Source of the DNA: Thermoplasmatales archaeon SW_10_69_26
GTDB lineage: Archaea > Thermoplasmatota > SW-10-69-26
Reading direction: 5' to 3'
Length of the DNA: 64,000 nt
Assembly (NCBI GenBank): GCA_003009755.1
Contig: PXUB01000036.1
Location: forward strand, 1-64,000
The notes below the pieces were generated by a model. That model made no database searches and had not been told where the DNA came from. It saw nothing but the letters and a program-made list of their open reading frames with translations. The position numbers were made by a program, and so were the translations under genes. This document shows positions 1 through 49,575 of the stretch, in pieces. How positions within the stretch are numbered: the stretch's first letter is position 1; each line of letters begins with the position of its first letter.

Positions 1-412
1 GACACAACTACAGACCCTCGCCCGAAGGGCATTTCGAGGTCGACGGCGACAACGCTTGCAACCCGCGGACGTGGGGAATCTCGCGTCGTCACCGGCCTGA
101 GGGCGGCCCCGCCGTGAGGGGGGGGTCACGGAGACCGCTCCCCCCCCCCGATTTGGTGAACATTTCCTGGCCAACCGCTCGTAGGGGGAGACCGTGGGAC
201 CGGAAATGGTCTGGTGCGCCGGTCTGCGGCGGGCAATCTCGTTGTCGCCCCCTGAGATCTCGCCCGTCCGGGCGGTCTCAGGCACGCCCGACTCTCTGAT
301 CCGGGCAGTGTCCGTCGACAACCCTCGAGGGTTGGTTTCCGCGGGCTCGGCGACCGTGCCACGCTCCCGAGACCGGCGCGAGAGCCTAAGCAAAACAAGA
401 CCGGCAGTCTAG
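1..412 (-). mobile_element. TIR-bounded non-coding element, copy 1 (L end at 412; R end outside the window)
   Basis: 378-412 reverse-complements to CTAGACTGCCGGTCTTGTTTTGCTTAGGCTCTCGC. 328-412 matches 10813-10894, 44-325 matches 11717-12057 in inverted orientation, and about 20-58 matches 48152-48190. Confidence 0.8.
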
Positions 413-5939: not shown

Positions 5940-6530
5940 TCAGGCCGAGCCGATCGGCCGCCGGCGCAGGTACACCCGAGCCCCCAGCCCGACGAGGGCG
6001 AGGCCGACGAGCCCCGCGTAGGCGATCGCCGTCCACTCCGAGCCGGCCCAGGCTCCGGTCGGGCCGCCAAGCGTACCCGACGTCGAGGGGCCAGGGTCGA
6101 CCAGGAACAGCTCGTAGATGGCGAGCGCAGCCGAGGCCAGGAACGCGGTCAACGTCCCGAGGTCGACGACGAGCTCGAGCTTGTCGCGGTCGACGAGCGC
6201 CTGGCCGGGCCCGGTGAGGCTGTAGTACACCCACAACCGGTCCTCGTCCTCGTGGCGTTCGACGAAGCCGTCGGTGACGAGATCCTGCAGGTAGCCGTGC
6301 ACGGTGCTCTTGTTGAGCTCGAGCTCGCGGGCGAGCTCGCTGGCGGTCCGTCGGGTGCCGTGCAGGGCTTTGAGGACGCGCAGCCGGCTTTCGGAGACGT
6401 CGACGAGCGACGTGTCGGCCACCGCCGTCGACCGCTCGCGATCGGCGTCGACGGGCGTCGAGCTGGAGCCGTTGTCCGGGCCGTCGGTCTCCGCGGCGGT
6501 CCCCTGGTCCGAGCGCGCCCCTTGGTCCAT
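5940..6530 (-). CDS. Membrane-anchored ArsR/winged-HTH transcriptional regulator
   Basis: SESRLRVLKAL...TASELARELELNKSTVHGYLQDL...WVYYSLT followed by two transmembrane helices. Start uncertain (6530 or 6554). Confidence 0.8.
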   Translation of the reverse strand: MDQGARSDQGTAAETDGPDNGSSSTPVDADRERSTAVADTSLVDVSESRLRVLKALHGTRRTASELARELELNKSTVHGYLQDLVTDGFVERHEDEDRLWVYYSLTGPGQALVDRDKLELVVDLGTLTAFLASAALAIYELFLVDPGPSTSGTLGGPTGAWAGSEWTAIAYAGLVGLALVGLGARVYLRRRPIGSA

Positions 6531-6692
6531 CCGAGCCCCTGTGAATCGTGCCATGGCTTCAATGTCGGGGTTCCGTTCGGTCCGAGCCAACCGCCGATCG
6601 GACCCACCGCTGGGCCATGGAAGAGAACAAGAAAGACACGGGGAGGCCGACTGGCCCCCTCACCGCCGGACGTGATGGGGGAACCTCTCGTT

Positions 6693-6925
6693 GGTTGATG
6701 ACGGTGTGTCAGCTTGCGGCCCACGGCACCCTCGCTGACGAATCTCAGCCCGAGGGATCGGGCCCGTTGACGCGAGGCGATCGACACCGTTCTCGAACCC
6801 ATCCGCGAGGAAGGCGCGGTGGTTGCACCGGTGGCCGACCACGTCTAGGTAGGCCTGCAAGGCCCCATCGCTCGCGTTCGCATGCGTGCCGTCGATCACA
6901 CGCTTGAGGTTGCCGAACAGGCTTC
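6693..6925 (-). mobile_element. IS1595-family transposase 3' remnant
   Basis: FGNLKRVIDGTHANASDGALQAYLDVVGHRCNHR resembles the IS1595 C-terminal NLKR..GT.H..S..HLQ.YLDE..YR.N.R motif; possible terminal IR GGTTGATG at 6693. Confidence 0.65.
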
Positions 6926-10396: not shown

Positions 10397-10961
10397 TGTG
10401 CTCCCTCGGCGTGGGAACTGTTCGGAGGTGGTCGGTCGTCGATGATGGAAGGTAAGCCGCGAGGGGCGAGATAAAGAAAGTGGATAGATACTCGAATTTT
10501 GACTGCAGTCCCCGGGGTCTTGGTGCTTGTTGACCGCATTCCGAGCATAGTTGGCAGTTCTCGAGCTTCGCAACGGCGCCAGGTGAACCGGCAGTGATCA
10601 GATGAAGAACGGAAAGATGGCGATGTTCTTGGTGACGGTGATGATTGTGGGAGCCCTTGCCCACCGACGGGGACGGCGGACCACGATTTGACCGACCCCG
10701 ATTGCTCGGATTCGGGCTTCGGCGACGGGGACTGTAGCACGACGGAGGCCTGTTCGAGGGACGCCTACCTCTACGTTCGCGCGCGGGTCTCAGACGGTGA
10801 GACGAACGAGATCTGGACTGCCGGACGTGTTTTGCTTACGCTCTCGCGCCGGTCTGAGCGAGGCAAGGTCGCGGAGCCCGAGGAAGGAAACCCCGAAAAT
10901 TTCCGACCCTCCGGTCCACCCGAACACGAACCGGAACAACTAGAAAGAACGCCGAGCAGGG

Positions 10962-11691
10962 GCCGCTGTGTTCCACGACAACAACGCCCTGCTCGGCACC
11001 CTCACCCACCGCCTCGTTCAGGAAGACGTTTTCGACCGCGACCGCAAACAACCCCAAACCCGCGCCCTGGCTCTGTTGTTGCACCACGCCGGACTGAGCT
11101 GCCGGCGAACCAGCCAACTGATCTCGCTGTTGGCTGAACCCGTCTCCCATGCTCCCATCAGCGCCTGGTACCGCCGCGCCAGCCACCTGTTCCGCGAGCA
11201 ACCCGTGCAACGCCACGAACGGTTAGTCATCGACGAAACCAGCCTGCACATCGAGAAACCGCGCGAGGCGTGGCCCGAGGACTGCGACAAGGATGCTGGC
11301 GACCATCTGGACGAGTTGTTCCTGTGGGCCGCCGTCGACCCGGACACCGAGCAACTCGTCCACGTGGCCGTCAGCCAGGGCCGAAGCGGCGTTGAAGCGC
11401 TCGCGTTCATCAAGGGCGCGTTGGCCCGTTGCGACAATCAGCCGTTCATCCACGTCGATCGGGGCGTCTGGTACCCCTGGCCGCTCACCTTGCTCGGTCT
11501 GGAGTGGCAGGTCACGTCCGGTGGGGTGCGCAATACCGTGGAGACATGGTTTGGGCTACTCAAGGAGCGTATCGGTCAGTTCCGCAGACGCTGGCCGACG
11601 AACGGGTGTCCGGGGGAGGTTGAGGCCTGGGTCGAGGGGTTCGCATGGCTGTTCAATCGAGACCCGTCCGCCCGCTTAACCTGACAGCGGC
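10962..11691 (+). mobile_element. IS6-family insertion sequence (left boundary uncertain)
   Basis: Right end AACCTGACAGCGGC overlaps the transposase stop, as in archaeal IS6 elements. Only an 8-bp match (GCCGCTGT) at the left; no target duplication seen. Confidence 0.6.
10968..11684 (+). CDS. IS6-family DDE transposase
   Basis: GLSCRRTS, VIDET, LWAAVD, VDRGVWY, RNTVETWFGLLKER. Confidence 0.85.
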   Translation: MFHDNNALLGTLTHRLVQEDVFDRDRKQPQTRALALLLHHAGLSCRRTSQLISLLAEPVSHAPISAWYRRASHLFREQPVQRHERLVIDETSLHIEKPREAWPEDCDKDAGDHLDELFLWAAVDPDTEQLVHVAVSQGRSGVEALAFIKGALARCDNQPFIHVDRGVWYPWPLTLLGLEWQVTSGGVRNTVETWFGLLKERIGQFRRRWPTNGCPGEVEAWVEGFAWLFNRDPSARLT

Positions 11692-11716
11692 GGCGGTGGC
11701 TGCGACCCCCCTCAGT

Positions 11717-12057
11717 CGGGTTGTCGACGGATGCTGTCCGAACCCGCCGGGTTCGGGCGTGCCTGAGATCGCCCGGGCGGGCGAGATCTCAGGGGGCGAC
11801 AACGGCCGAGCATCGGTCCGCCGTCTGGACCAGTCTCGGCTGCGTACGAATCTTCGATTCGTACAGCAAGATGGCCCGCCTCAGACCGGCGCACCAGAGC
11901 ATTTCCGGTCCCACGGTCTCCCCCTACGAGCGGTTGGCCAGGAGATGTTCACCAAATCGAGGGGGAGCGGTGTCCGCGACCCCCCTCACGGCGGGGCCGC
12001 CCGCAGGCGGCGATGATACGATCTTTGCAAGTTGTGAGGTTTCCAGGCGTTGTCGCC
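11717..12057 (+). ncRNA. Putative structured non-coding RNA (or ssDNA structure) inside the element
   Basis: Nested stems 11795-11804/12048-12057, 11897-11906/11941-11950, 11736-11745/11749-11758 and 11762-11770/11785-11793. The 77-nt core is 75/77 identical to copy 1; G-U pairs mostly favour this strand. Confidence 0.45.
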
Positions 12058-12559
12058 TTCGCCATCGACGTAGCCTGTGGCTACTCCTTCGTCTCGGCTC
12101 CGCGCTTTCACCGCCTGAGGCCGAGCGAGAGCTTAACCCAAGCACAGCCGGCAGTCTAGGGGGAGTTCTCGTGTGGCGGAGAAAGCGTATCCTGCTACGA
12201 TGACAACGACCTGGCAGGATGTACCGGCGGGCCTTCAAACCTAACCGGCTCCTCGAGTTCGGGATCCTGCAACGGATGGACCGAGGAGGACGGCGGCGAC
12301 GACCAGACCTTCTATCTCGCCTGCGAGGACCACGATAGCTCCACGATCCAAACCTCCAAGATGGGGAGTTCACCCAGGGATGGGCTCTACCTCACCGTCG
12401 AGGATGGCGTCCCTCAAGGGGAGGCATGCGAGGATGGCGTCTGCCACGCCGCACCGGCCGACCGCTCGACCGTCGGGGAGAAGCGCCACTGCTCCGTGAC
12501 GGGTGGCCACCTCCCATGGACTCGAGACTCGACCCGACCCCGGGTGTTACGCAGAGTCC

Positions 12560-12997
12560 CGAGGCCAAACTGAAGCTGTCCGGGTGTTCTGACGCTCTCT
12601 TCCCGGAGATTTCTGTTCACTACCTGTTCCCCAAGCCCGACGGGACGGCCTGGCGGAGCAAGGAGAACCTCGCCGATGGGCTGCGCAACCGGGTGGTCCA
12701 CAAGTTCCCGTGGTGGTCGCCCAACCTGCCCCGCTACTGGAGCATCAACGCCTGCCTCATCGGCACCGGTTCGACGCCTACGGGGTCGCCGAGTGGACCG
12801 AGCACTCAAGCGTCAACCGGATCAAGATTCACTACGCGTCGAGGACGCGGGCGTTGGAGAAGGCCTACGGGGATCGGTGGGTGCTCAGGTCGTTTCAGAT
12901 CGATCGTGTGGAAGTTCGTGTCAATGAGGCCCCCGTGGTCCCGGTTGGAAACGCGGGAGCAGCCCGTCGACGCTCGCACTCCCGAGATCCAAGCTGA
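12560..12997 (+). pseudogene. Probable tyrosine recombinase/integrase C-terminal remnant
   Basis: YLFPKPDG...WSPNLPRYWSINACLI / FDAYGVAEWTEHSSVNRIKIHY (frameshift near 12767) resembles the HxLRH...LGH...Y catalytic region. Confidence 0.5.
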
Positions 12998-13035
12998 CCA
13001 AGTCGTCGATCGTCTCGATGCCAGCGGCGTTCACG

Positions 13036-13084
13036 ACACGCTCAGACCCGCGAGCGGTTCGACGAACCCAGTCCGGCAGGCTAG
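13036..13084 (-). mobile_element. Orphan L-type end of the TIR element family
   Basis: Reverse complement CTAGCCTGCCGGACTGGGTTCGTCGAACCGCTCGCGGGTCTGAGCG aligns with 10813-10860; its CTAG contains the TAG stop of 13081-14778. Confidence 0.7.
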
Positions 13085-14778
13085 GGTGCCGATTGGCAGC
13101 CGGCTTCGGCGAGCCCGTCCAGGCAGACGCTGGCCGCGCCGCCGCTGGTGACGGCCCCGACCTCCTGGCCGCCGGCGGGCGTCTGCAGGGACGCCAGCAC
13201 GCGGAGCAGGGTCGGGCACGGCGAGAAGAAGCCCCCGCACGTGGCCGAGGCGTCAGCGCCGACGTCGGCGACGTTGGCGGTGCCGCTGGCGCGGGCTCTC
13301 CCGCAAAGCGAGCCCTCGTTCACGGACAACCAGTTGCACTCGGCGTCGACGCGCAGCGGCGGCGCCGTGCCGGGCTCCTCGCGGTAGAGCACCTGGGCGT
13401 CGGCCTCGTTGCAGGGCGGGCCGTCGGTGGGCGGGCCCTGGCAGAGGAACGAGGCCTCGAGGTCGTTCTCGCCGCCGGGCAGGTCGTCGTCGGGGGCCAC
13501 CTGGACGTGGGCGACGTGGAACATCCAGCCGGTGTACTCCTGGCCGAAGTAGCTGACCTCGGCGGACCCGACGCCCTCGATCTCGCCCGTGGTTTCGACG
13601 TACTCGGGCTGGGGGTCGTCGTCGTAGTTGCAGGCCTCGACGCCGTCGGCGGGCGACGTGCAGGGGCTGGTGGTCTGACTGTCCTCGGAGCCGTCGTCGG
13701 AGGTGGGGTCGCCGAAGAGGTAGACGGCGCCGGCGTTGTGGGCGTTCGTGTCGGCGCCGGGCGCCGTGGCGAGGAGCTGGCCATCGTGGGCCACGACCGT
13801 CGCCGTCTCGGCCGGCGAGGCGACGTAGGCGGTGCCGTCGTCGAGCGCCACGCTGAAGCCGACGCTGCCGTGCGCGGAGACGGCCGGCTCGAGGTCGGCC
13901 TGGTGCTGCCAGCCGCCGGCCTGCAGCGCGTACGCGAACGCGTCGCCGTCCTGGCTGGAGGGCAGCGGGCTGCAGCACACGGAGGCCTGGGGACCCGGCG
14001 CGCCGACGATCATCTGGTCGCCGTCGACGGCGAGCGCGCGGCCGAACTGCTCGGCGTCGCTGTCCTCGGGCGCCGTGATCGTCTGCTGGTTGGCCCAGCC
14101 CGTCTTGCCGTCCTCGTACACGTAGATCGCGCCGGCGTAGGTCCGTTCGGTGCCGGCGTTGGTCTCGTCTTCGGGGGCGCCGGCGTACAGGAACCCGTCC
14201 TCGAGCGTGATCTCGTAGCCCAGACGCTCCTTGTCGGGATCGTTGGGCGGCGTGAGCTTGGTCTGGTGGGCCCAGCCGTCGCTGGCGGCCTCGTAGACGT
14301 GGACGGCGCCGTTGGAGTCGTACCCGTCGGGCGCGTCCTCGGGCTCTGCGACGGCCAGCGTGCCGTCCTCGAGGGCGAGCGCCGAGCCGAAGCGTTCGAT
14401 CGATCCGGGGTCCGTCGAGGACAGCGTGGCGTGGTGCGTCCAGCCGTCTGCGGTGTGCTGGTACACGAGCGCCTCGCCGACGTTGGCGAACCCGTCGGGC
14501 GCGGTGATCGTGTCCACGAGCCGGGGCTGGTCGCCGCTGCGGTCGTAGACGTAGACCTCGCCGTCGCCGGCGTTGGTGTTGCCCAACGCCAGCCGGTCGC
14601 CGTCGACGGCGATGTCCTGCGCGAAGCGATCGTCTTCCCCGATCGCGTCGGGGGTGAGCTTGGCCTGTTGGTCGGTCACATACGGCGACGCGGACGCGGC
14701 TCCCGCCAGCGGGGTGGCCAGCAGGGCGAGAGCGCACGCGAGCGTCACCGCAACGTGCCATGTCGTCTCTTGGTTCAT
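13081..14778 (-). CDS. Secreted FG-GAP/integrin-alpha-like repeat protein
   Basis: Signal peptide; repeated FG.ALA.DGD...VGAP...GA.Y.Y motifs; Cys-rich C-terminal domain. Confidence 0.8.
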   Translation of the reverse strand: MNQETTWHVAVTLACALALLATPLAGAASASPYVTDQQAKLTPDAIGEDDRFAQDIAVDGDRLALGNTNAGDGEVYVYDRSGDQPRLVDTITAPDGFANVGEALVYQHTADGWTHHATLSSTDPGSIERFGSALALEDGTLAVAEPEDAPDGYDSNGAVHVYEAASDGWAHQTKLTPPNDPDKERLGYEITLEDGFLYAGAPEDETNAGTERTYAGAIYVYEDGKTGWANQQTITAPEDSDAEQFGRALAVDGDQMIVGAPGPQASVCCSPLPSSQDGDAFAYALQAGGWQHQADLEPAVSAHGSVGFSVALDDGTAYVASPAETATVVAHDGQLLATAPGADTNAHNAGAVYLFGDPTSDDGSEDSQTTSPCTSPADGVEACNYDDDPQPEYVETTGEIEGVGSAEVSYFGQEYTGWMFHVAHVQVAPDDDLPGGENDLEASFLCQGPPTDGPPCNEADAQVLYREEPGTAPPLRVDAECNWLSVNEGSLCGRARASGTANVADVGADASATCGGFFSPCPTLLRVLASLQTPAGGQEVGAVTSGGAASVCLDGLAEAGCQSAP

Positions 14779-47981: not shown

Positions 47982-48075
47982 ACCTCGCGGACGCCGCAAG
48001 GGGGGTAAGTACGTTGGGTGGAGGGAGGACAGGGAGGCGGGAGAGGTTGCAGAGCCCTCCACCCCGCCCGTCCCC

Positions 48076-48225
48076 ATAGACTGCCGGGCGTTATCTGCGT
48101 ACCTCTCGCCGCCCTCAGGAGGTCGAAAGCTAGGAGCCAAGACGACGGAAGGCCCGCAGGGCCTTTCGAGGTCGACGGCGACGACGCTTGGCGAGATGGT
48201 AGGCACATCGAGTCCGGCAGGCTAG
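48076..48225 (-). mobile_element. TIR-bounded element, copy 3 (150-bp internally deleted form)
   Basis: ATAGACTGCCGG... at 48076 and ...CCGGCAGGCTAG at 48225. 48076-48190 aligns with the reverse complement of 12045-12159; the CTAG contains the trm11 stop. Confidence 0.85.
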
Positions 48226-49115
48226 TGCCCGGCGCGGCGCTCGAACACGAAGATGTGCCGCGTCAAGGAGCCGTGCACGTACCACTCGAAGGTCTCGACG
48301 ACCTCGAGCGTGAGCGGGGCCAGGTCGGCCAGCTCGGGATCGGGCAGCACGACGACGAGGCGATCGCTGGCGTCGAGGCTGCCGGCGGCGACGGCGAGGA
48401 ACCGCTCGAACAGGTCCTGGCGCTCCTCGTCGTGGGTCTTGGAGGCTCGACCGTAGGGGGGATCGGTGGCGATGCCGTCGACGAACCCGACGGCGTCGGC
48501 CACGTCCTGGAAGTCTCCTTGCACGACGGCGCCGGTGGCCTCGAAGTGCTCGAGCGTGGACTGGGTGGCCTCGACCATGTCCTCGTCGAGGTCGCTGGCG
48601 AGCGTGTCGGCCCCGATGAGCGCGGCCTCGACCGCCAGGCCGCCGGTGCCGGCGAAGGGATCCCACAAGCGGCCGCCCTCGGGGACCTCGGTCAGGTTCA
48701 CCAGGGCTCTGGCCAACCGAGGGTGGAGCGTGACGGGCGAGTGGTCGGGTCGCTCCTCGACGTGGCGCTCCTCGTGGCTGGCGCGGTCGATCGTCGCGGC
48801 TTCGACGCCGACGACGGCCTCGTTGTCGAGCAGGACGCGCACGACGGCCTCGGGCTCGTCCAGGTCGACGTCGGCCTGGTCGCTGAGCGCTTGGCCGACC
48901 TCGCGTTCGATCGTCTCGGCCAGCTCGGCGCCGTGGGCTTCGGTGAGGCGCGAGCAGCGGACGGCGAACGTGTCGGCCTCGAGCTCGATCGCCTCCAGCT
49001 GCACCCGCTCGAGGTCGGCGTTGACCGGCGCGCCTCCGAGGGCGCGAGCGGCGGCGGCCGCCTCGGCGCGGGCCAGCTTCGGGTGCTCGCCGGACAGCTC
49101 GACGGCGTAGGCCAC
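48222..49115 (-). CDS. trm11: tRNA m2G10 methyltransferase (Trm11/TrmG10)
   Basis: ELSGEHP, THUMP-like region, LHPRLARALVNL, DPFAGTGG, TDPPYG, YVHGSLTR. Confidence 0.88.
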   Translation of the reverse strand: MAYAVELSGEHPKLARAEAAAAARALGGAPVNADLERVQLEAIELEADTFAVRCSRLTEAHGAELAETIEREVGQALSDQADVDLDEPEAVVRVLLDNEAVVGVEAATIDRASHEERHVEERPDHSPVTLHPRLARALVNLTEVPEGGRLWDPFAGTGGLAVEAALIGADTLASDLDEDMVEATQSTLEHFEATGAVVQGDFQDVADAVGFVDGIATDPPYGRASKTHDEERQDLFERFLAVAAGSLDASDRLVVVLPDPELADLAPLTLEVVETFEWYVHGSLTRHIFVFERRAGH

Positions 49116-49139
49116 GGGCCGGGAAGGGGGAGGGTCACG

Positions 49140-49575
49140 AAAGGCCTGCGGTCGGGTGGGGAGGGCGGAGAGGGGAGAGGATGCAGAGTGGCGAACCCGA
49201 CCACAGAGGCACAGAGACACAGAGTAACCCACAGAGGACGGGCAGGAAGGGCTGGCGAGGAGAGGGCCCGTGGAGGCGGAGGAGAGACGGCGGGAGAGCA
49301 CGGCCGAGGCAGCCGAGGGCGGGACCGTGCCCCGTGGACGCTGTGCCGCCGTTCACTATCGGCGAGCGTGGCTTCGCCCCTCAGGTCGCGGGGCTGGCGC
49401 CTCGCTGACCCTCAGCCGCCTCCTTCACCTCTCGCACTGCCGAACCTCTCTCCCCTCTGTTGTTCGCCGCCCTCTGCGATCCTCTCTCTTGCCTTACCAC
49501 GTTCGGTTCTCTGCTTTCCTCTGCTTCCCGGCTCCTCTGCGTGTTCTTTCCCCCACCGGGCAGCCTTTTCTACCC
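49140..49575. repeat. Intergenic purine-rich/pyrimidine-rich tract containing a CACAGAGN array
   Basis: ACCACAGAGGCACAGAGACACAGAGTAACCCACAGAGG at 49200-49237; degenerate CTCTG-rich opposite half at 49455-49545. Confidence 0.65.

Follow-up and report, generated by a model that had tools for sequence, protein, structure and literature searches.

Here we show that a 64-kb stretch of DNA from the uncultured Thermoplasmatales archaeon SW_10_69_26 (contig PXUB01000036.1, positions 1 to 64,000; hereafter the window) carries four loci of a mobile element with bipartite terminal inverted repeats (TIRs) and no transposase of its own. We call it the outer element, to distinguish it from an IS6-like insertion sequence nested in one of its copies. 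The family is non-autonomous and of the kind called MITEs, for miniature inverted-repeat transposable elements: it has TIRs, it is small (540 bp, 142 bp and 75 nt) and lacks a transposase, and it is dispersed, with presence or absence in relatives. CTAG is its sequence-specific target, and protein-level comparison with homologues from outside the window shows that the outer elements are insertions and have been mobile. It is probable, though by no means certain, that the element is mobilised in trans by a DDE transposase, with duplication of CTAG or TA. An earlier note on this DNA had listed a two-ended copy with a nested IS6-like unit, a partial copy cut by the edge of the window, a deleted copy and an orphan end, and the same copies were found here (Table 1).

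Results

Outside evidence of insertion

The two-ended copy (copy 2) splits a host gene. The earlier note had observed that excision of 10817-12159 restores the interrupted open reading frame (ORF) exactly in frame; the observation is real and is now backed by an uninterrupted homologue. When the downstream half of the split ORF was searched against 1.8 billion representative proteins, three proteins were found, and a search with one of these, P0028, for more uninterrupted homologues returned only P0028, P0029 and P0030. P0028, a metagenomic protein of 203 aa, runs uninterrupted across the copy-2 site. Its residues 1-24 matched 10602-10673 in frame 3 and residues 17-72 matched 10649-10816 in frame 2 (tblastn), while residues 73-191 matched 12160-12516, with no residue lost or gained at the junction.

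P0030 (238 aa, 95% identical over 150 residues) spans the site of the solo end, end D, in a close relative. It is short of exactly 25 residues, corresponding to 13005-13079 or equivalently 13006-13080, i.e. the 75-nt solo end. Thus, the element is present in one and absent from the other of two close relatives. P0030 retains one Ala-Arg, for which the codons in the window are GCT AGG, holding CTAG. Provided that the relative uses the same codons, its empty site D most probably holds a single CTAG, as read from the protein and not from DNA. The search for empty sites proposed in the earlier note has yielded, at protein level, an uninterrupted P0028 for copy 2 and a P0030 free of the solo end.

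The product of the split host gene is Cys- and Asp-rich, with a signal-peptide-like N terminus (MKNGKMAMFLVTVM...). Compared with P0028 the gene has at least one frameshift, near 10650-10670, and compared with P0030 at least one more, near 12555; because of these frameshifts it is, as its sequence reads, a decaying pseudogene. The region 10602-12990 has 64.3% GC as against 70.4% for the whole window.

Ends of the outer element

All six related ends reported earlier (A to F, Table 1) were confirmed at their positions. A 35-nt end pattern with up to 2 mismatches had 5 matches in the window against 0.10 expected, and none of 100 shuffles reached 5. The flank-free pattern CTGCCGG-N17/18-CTCGC had 7 exact matches against 0.17 expected, and 6 of these were the element ends. 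The seventh match, 11099-11127 (+), falls within the IS6-like transposase gene, probably by chance; it has an N17 spacer, is located in the stretch coding LSCRRTSQLISL and is without a CTAG-like flank. The second box is missing at the equivalent position of L001, a locus in a Thermoplasmatales metagenome-assembled genome that is described below. A profile of the six ends, run on the window and on L001 (which had been picked via the transposase), found every end again at E values of 1e-11 to 9e-17, and no further match below E 0.075 was obtained in these two sequences. An end-like site at 6661-6703 (+), CCGCCGG-ACGTG...CTCGT, scored E 0.075 but was without CTAG and was left out of the end count. 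It adjoins the start of the gene 5943-6659(-); chance, or far-advanced decay of an end, may explain it.

Alignment of the ends revealed a common layout, namely an (A/C)CTGCCGG box, a variable spacer of 17-18 nt, a CTCGC box and a looser similarity that continues to about position 75. The sequence past the second box distinguishes two types of end, L (GGTCTGAG-like; A, B, D and F) and R (CCTCAGG-like; C and E). The arms of copy 2 are 80% complementary over 35 nt, and the similarity between them reaches about 76 nt at 74% (blastn). A perfect 13-nt inverted repeat, GCGCCGGTCTGAG / CTCAGACCGGCGC, is present at 10846-10858, just inside the L end, and at 11880-11892 in the interior of the element, and copy 1 has an equivalent pair.

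CTAG as the target

The tetranucleotide flanking the ends was CTAG at 4 of the 6 ends, and the other two flanks (CTGG and CTAT) were one base off. The window reads archaeal (Pfam archaeosine tRNA-guanine transglycosylase domains, archaeal Nre and an HVO_A0261-type regulator), and CTAG occurs only 27 times in its 64 kb, whereas base composition predicts 173 occurrences and a Markov model 74.6. Since CTAG is so rare in the window and yet stands at, or one base from, all six flanks, it is the specific target of the outer element. Avoidance of CTAG has been reported in haloarchaea, where CTAG is methylated (PMC7002104). GATC and TCGA were over-represented about 3- to 5-fold in the window.

CTAG serves as a TAG stop codon at 6 of the 27 window sites (44 called ORFs). 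As stop codons account for many of the CTAG sites that remain, insertions are found at gene ends: at end D, CTAG holds the TAG stop (13081-13083) of the converging FG-GAP gene 13081-14778(-), and at end F it holds the stop (48222-48224) of the converging UPF0020 methyltransferase gene 48222-49301(-).

Copies of the outer element

Pairwise alignment showed the copies to be 80-86% identical to each other (14-20% different). Copy 2, when the nested unit and one 8-bp repeat are removed, is 540 bp long plus flanks. Copy 1 matched copy 2 (blastn) in blocks at copy-2 positions 1-95, 906-992 and 1051-1256 with 80-85% identity, 10908-11717 being missing; it is colinear with copy 2 minus the nested unit, with 86% identity over 381 aligned bases. 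By this alignment, 78 nt of the outer element of copy 2 would be expected past window position 1.

In copy 3, the L end is fused directly to the last ~110 nt of the R side, and the whole folds into a long terminal hairpin (z -3.81). The middle of this copy holds a perfect stem-loop, GAAGGCCC-GCA-GGGCCTTTC, at 48148-48167. Copy 3 lies between two co-directional genes, for a methyltransferase and an Mrp/NBP35-type ATPase.

The nested IS6-like unit

The transposase gene in copy 2 belongs to a separate IS6-like element which, as comparison with related loci and proteins shows, is independent of the outer element and arrived in it later; the nested IS6 of the earlier note is thus real. Four observations establish this. 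A scan of genome contigs with an alignment of the transposase gave a single locus, L001, with 78% amino-acid identity, and its DNA homology was limited to ~10911 to ~11695; none of the 35-nt outer-element ends was detected in L001 with the profile of six ends. At the boundaries of the unit, the predicted proteins P0001, P0019 and P0007 continue into differing flank sequence. The unit is bracketed by an 8-bp repeat, GACCCTCC on the left and GACCCCCC on the right, that matches at 7 of 8 positions. The unit is also absent from copy 1, which is otherwise colinear, although copy 1 is short of 22 bp around the insertion point as well and so does not provide a clean empty site.

A repeat of 8 bp is the length expected for the IS6-like family. 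The TIRs of the unit are weak, GGTCCACC on the left and GGTGGCTGC on the right having the CCACC core alone in common, and the left end begins with GG. A right end at 11748-11767 (a 20-nt arm, 75% complementary) was considered and rejected, the stretch being common to copy 1 and the L001 homology stopping sooner. P0001 and P0019 have similar N-terminal read-through extensions upstream of the unit's left end (CLVKQW / CLVTR); related genomes may share one insertion locus here, or the left end may reach further in these copies. In L001, the unit is situated between two genes, in an intergenic gap of 0.9 kb, and has no recognisable 8-bp duplication. Two CTAG sites occur within 20 nt of each other at 9917-9934 of L001, just upstream of the IS6-like unit.

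The transposase scored 84.2 bits on the NCBIfam IS6 model (NF033587), under the cut-off of 125, and matched Pfam DDE_Tnp_IS240 weakly (16.2 against a cut-off of 27). We obtained 25 homologues from the protein collection; the triad D89, D164 and E192 was invariant in the 21 that were aligned, and the equivalent of F195, K199 and R201 were invariant or nearly so across the same 21. The protein has the motifs E--F---K-R and W---F, which the excerpted text of Harmer and Hall (PMC6807381) gives as motifs of archaeal 'IS6' transposases. Among plasmids there were 52 matches, and the 30 listed were all haloarchaeal, 23-37% identical and mostly annotated as IS6 or DDE transposases.

Searches for relatives and partner enzymes

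A Pfam scan of 57 window ORFs, with the nested transposase scanned apart, revealed no transposase for the outer element, no DDE_Tnp_1-type transposase, no recombinase and no integrase. The outer element has no conserved ORF. A frame that is open in copies 1 and 2 (11721-12200) gave 0 protein matches among 479 candidates, and this shared frame is broken by 2- and 3-nt indels between the copies. Copy 2 had no match by blastn in the plasmid and phage collections. With the 70-nt L end, only 12 matches of chance level were obtained at E up to 10, from bacterial plasmids, and none of them was at a transposase. Rfam at a permissive threshold gave one match in 10780-13120 (E 0.58; 19.9 bits, the gathering score being 100). 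When the end motifs were searched as literature text, the matches listed were unrelated primer or oligo sequences alone.

Table 1. Positions of the outer element, its ends, the nested unit and the interrupted host gene in the window.
Feature	Position	Strand	Remarks
Copy 1	1..412	-	Partial, cut by window edge; L end 378-412
Copy 2	10817-12155, flanks CTGG / CTAG	+	1343 bp inserted into host gene
Copy 2, left arm	10817..10912	+	Runs to nested insertion
Copy 2, right arm	11712..12159	+	Contains R end 12125-12159
Solo L end (D)	13006..13084	-	75-nt remnant 13006-13080 (equivalently 13005-13079) abutting CTAG 13081-13084
Copy 3	48076..48225	-	Internally deleted; 142 bp plus 4-bp flanks; L end 48191-48225, R end 48076-48109
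End A	378-412	-	L-type; CTAG flank 409-412
End B	10813-10847	+	L-type, copy 2; CTGG flank 10813-10816, box ACTGCCGG, 18-nt spacer, box CTCGC
End C	12125-12159	-	R-type, copy 2; CTAG flank 12156-12159
End D	13050-13084	-	L-type, solo end; flank CTAG 13081-13084
End E	48076-48109	+	R-type, copy 3; spacer 1 base shorter (17 nt); + strand flank ATAG = CTAT in element orientation
End F	48191-48225	-	L-type, copy 3; flank CTAG
Nested archaeal IS6-like insertion sequence	10913..11703	+	~791 bp; right boundary uncertain by ~10 nt
Left 8-bp repeat GACCCTCC	10905-10912	+	Flanks nested unit
Right 8-bp repeat GACCCCCC	11704..11711	+	Read from sequence; 7/8 match to GACCCTCC
Nested-unit transposase	10968..11684	+	238 aa; DDE triad D89, D164, E192
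Host gene, upstream part	10602..10816	+	Cys-rich secreted-type protein; frameshift near 10650-10670
Host gene, downstream part	12160..12516	+	Restarts exactly at P0028 residue 73

Discussion

Unequal flanks and the favoured mechanism

The flanks of the two complete copies are unequal, as the earlier note had stated; in the orientation of the element they read CTGG/CTAG in copy 2 and CTAG/CTAT in copy 3. Each pair thus has a single mismatch, and 2 of the 24 flank bases (8%) are changed. We infer that these flanks are CTAG duplications, each with one later substitution. The copies are old, given their divergence of 14-20%, the insertion sequence inside one of them, the reduction of others to 142 bp and 75 nt and the decay of the host gene, and at such ages one substitution per flank pair is expected; the change of 8% in the flanks is of the same order as the divergence per copy. 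The earlier note had argued from the unequal flanks to a tyrosine recombinase. That argument is not supported, because it draws on two old copies with 2 changes in 24 bases, the flanks are all CTAG-like, and DDE elements that use CTAG are known.

The junction codon of copy 2 bears on the history of its flanks. P0028 has Tyr (TAY) there, which is one base from the TAG of the R side and two from the TGG of the L side. An economical history would run from TAY to TAG, creating CTAG, followed by the insertion and then by a change of the left TAG to TGG, the alternatives costing as many changes or more. The suggestion that the L side keeps the host version was borne out at the two stop codons (13081-13083 and 48222-48224) but not at copy 2, where the Tyr of P0028 is nearer to the R-side TAG. 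TA is found at the required position in 5 of the 6 ends and TG in one, which reads the same as a CTAG duplication; the two cannot be told apart from sequence, as with TA duplication the element would merely start with G and end with C. In both complete copies the host sequence outside the R flank is GGGGA (CTAG-GGGGAG at 12160-12165 in copy 2 and CTAT-GGGGAC at 48070-48075 in copy 3). At copy 2 this is host coding sequence (Gly-Glu), and it may reflect an extended target preference or coincidence.

We favour, as probable, the mobilisation of a MITE in trans by a DDE transposase with duplication of CTAG or TA. A transposase encoded elsewhere in the genome would bind both boxes of the ends, the element would integrate at CTAG and duplicate TA or CTAG, and each flank pair would gain one substitution after the insertion. 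Deletion would have produced the 75-nt solo end and the 142-bp copy, for example through incomplete repair after excision. A mover of DDE type is suggested by the long bipartite inverted repeats together with a short palindromic target, which is the architecture of DDE transposons and their MITEs. Thus, the description of a non-autonomous, dispersed insertion family stood as far as insertion, TIR boundaries and lack of autonomy are concerned, and its tyrosine-recombinase mechanism with coupling sequences was not supported.

Several observations weigh against the DDE mechanism that we favour. Both of the two complete copies have unequal flanks, and the terminal boxes have 0 changes in 72 bases as compared to 2 in 24 in the flanks. 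From this contrast the flanks would seem more variable than the ends, but the boxes are by definition the invariant columns, chosen afterwards, and they served to find the ends. At the solo end there is no second CTAG, and the inner boundary falls exactly on host sequence. Simple random deletion would predict neither, which is slightly odd; incomplete repair after excision fits better. Beyond the window, no copy of the outer element was found by profiling of the ends (on L001), by blastn on plasmids and phages or by the protein search with the internal frame. In the window there was no autonomous partner, and the class of the transposase is read from the architecture of the TIRs and the target.

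Alternative explanations

It is unlikely that no target duplication occurs at all and that the CTAG of the R end is part of an element (ACTGCCGG...CCGGCAGT-CTAG) inserted 3' of a CTAG-like tetranucleotide, the L flank belonging to the host and the R flank travelling with the element. Such an element would explain why host stop codons form the L flanks at D and F, why the TGG of the L flank of copy 2 keeps the host frame open, why the solo end D has only one host CTAG and why the R flanks (CTAG and CTAT) are free to differ from the L flanks. The outcome in sequence is, however, the same as that of a 4-bp duplication, the CTAT flank of copy 3 would need a mutated terminus, and the TAY of the relative at copy 2 is nearer to TAG, on the R side, than to the TGG of the L side. 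The precedent of the IS200/IS605 elements does not fit either, these having subterminal hairpins, no long TIRs and an end tetranucleotide that differs from the target. The more general proposition that the unequal flanks are the signature of a mechanism is very unlikely in our judgement. By this account an end-to-end palindromic junction would place the host tetranucleotide on the L side and that of the previous site on the R side, by transposition that is site-specific (through a tyrosine or serine recombinase) or in some other way non-duplicating, and the solo end would be a one-sided resolution. The specific version proposed in the earlier note, a tyrosine or other site-specific recombinase acting through a circle with a palindromic CCGGCAGT-CTAG-ACTGCCGG junction, with coupling sequences or heteroduplex products as flanks, we regard as highly improbable. 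It would account for the non-identical 4-mers at both of the complete copies, and the ends, if abutted, would make a 20-bp palindrome as read from the sequence. But no recombinase was present among the 57 ORFs scanned, the sample consists of two copies, both old, DDE transposons typically have bipartite inverted repeats of 35-75 nt, and all six flanks are CTAG or one base off, whereas coupling sequences of the Tn916 type are arbitrary. Since CTAG-targeting DDE elements are already in print (IS630, IS5 and MITEPsy1, in the excerpts cited below), a recombinase circle is not needed.

The 1343-bp unit could instead be a single autonomous insertion sequence that uses the IS6-like transposase, with copies 1 and 3 as its deletion derivatives. 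One deletion of 0.8 kb would turn an element like copy 2 into copy 1, and the 22 bp missing from copy 1 at the insertion point leave no clean empty site. We find this very hard to accept, because the homology with L001 ends at ~10911 and ~11695 and L001 is without the outer ends, P0001, P0019 and P0007 enter differing flanks at the boundaries of the nested unit, and the 8-bp repeat brackets a 791-bp unit whose ends are unlike the 35-nt ends. Scarcely credible, finally, is a structured repeat that is dispersed but non-mobile and that selection maintains beside genes, for instance as a regulatory or terminator palindrome. Copy 3 does fold well and two of the ends abut stop codons, but one copy splits a coding sequence exactly, another is missing from a 95%-identical relative, and no Rfam family was matched. 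The trans-mobilised MITE thus remains the explanation that we prefer.

Significance

MITEs of uncultured archaea are poorly catalogued, and the window offers a clean case with evidence of mobility from outside and a strict preference for CTAG. An element specific for CTAG is prone to insert at gene 3' ends, where it may affect transcription termination and the context of stop codons, and insertion at CTAG could contribute to selection against this tetranucleotide. The two copies also call for caution, as a mismatch of flanks in two old copies is no evidence for an unusual mechanism.

Comparison with known systems

The nested unit resembles the archaeal IS6-like insertion sequences (ISfinder IS6 family, archaeal clades, as described in the excerpts of Harmer and Hall 2019; PMC6807381) in its length of ~0.8 kb, its one transposase of ~238 aa, the DDE triad, the motifs and the 8-bp repeat (7/8). 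It differs in an IS6 score below the cut-off, in an identity of 23-37% to the listed haloarchaeal matches and in its weak inverted repeats.

For the outer element, transposons of the Tn916 type offer a likeness in the non-identical sequences at the two ends. In contrast to them, the outer element has no integrase or excisionase gene, uses one specific tetranucleotide, and is small and non-coding with long inverted repeats. IS630/Tc1-mariner elements are mobilised by a DDE transposase, and short non-autonomous derivatives of them are common. IS630 inserts at the TA within 5'-CTAG-3' according to the title of Tenzen and Ohtsubo 1991, cited in PMC2170065, and the excerpts of the latter paper give atypical duplications for ISY100 in vitro in 5 of 39 insertions. 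With the IS630/Tc1-mariner elements and their MITEs, as these excerpts describe them, the outer element has in common the TIRs, insertion at TA and the preference for CTAG; it differs in that no IS630-type transposase was found in the window and in that one of its L flanks has TG, not TA.

Copies of IS5 are flanked by CTAA or CTAG in the excerpt of PMC11677980, and the flank pattern of the outer element is compatible with the 4-bp YTAR duplication of the IS5 family. The IS5-family MITE MITEPsy1 of Pseudomonas syringae is described in the excerpt of PMC3189936 as 100 nt long with 18-nt inverted repeats, inserting after CTAG or YTAA with a 4-nt duplication. The outer element is like it, so far as that excerpt goes, in its small non-coding form and its use of CTAG. 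MITEPsy1 differs in being bacterial and in its unrelated end (GGAAGGTCTGAAAAAGCC), whereas the outer element has longer, bipartite ends and a full form of 540 bp. Nothing points to a new class of mobile element; set beside the known families by their descriptions only, the outer element appears to be a new family of the ordinary MITE kind.

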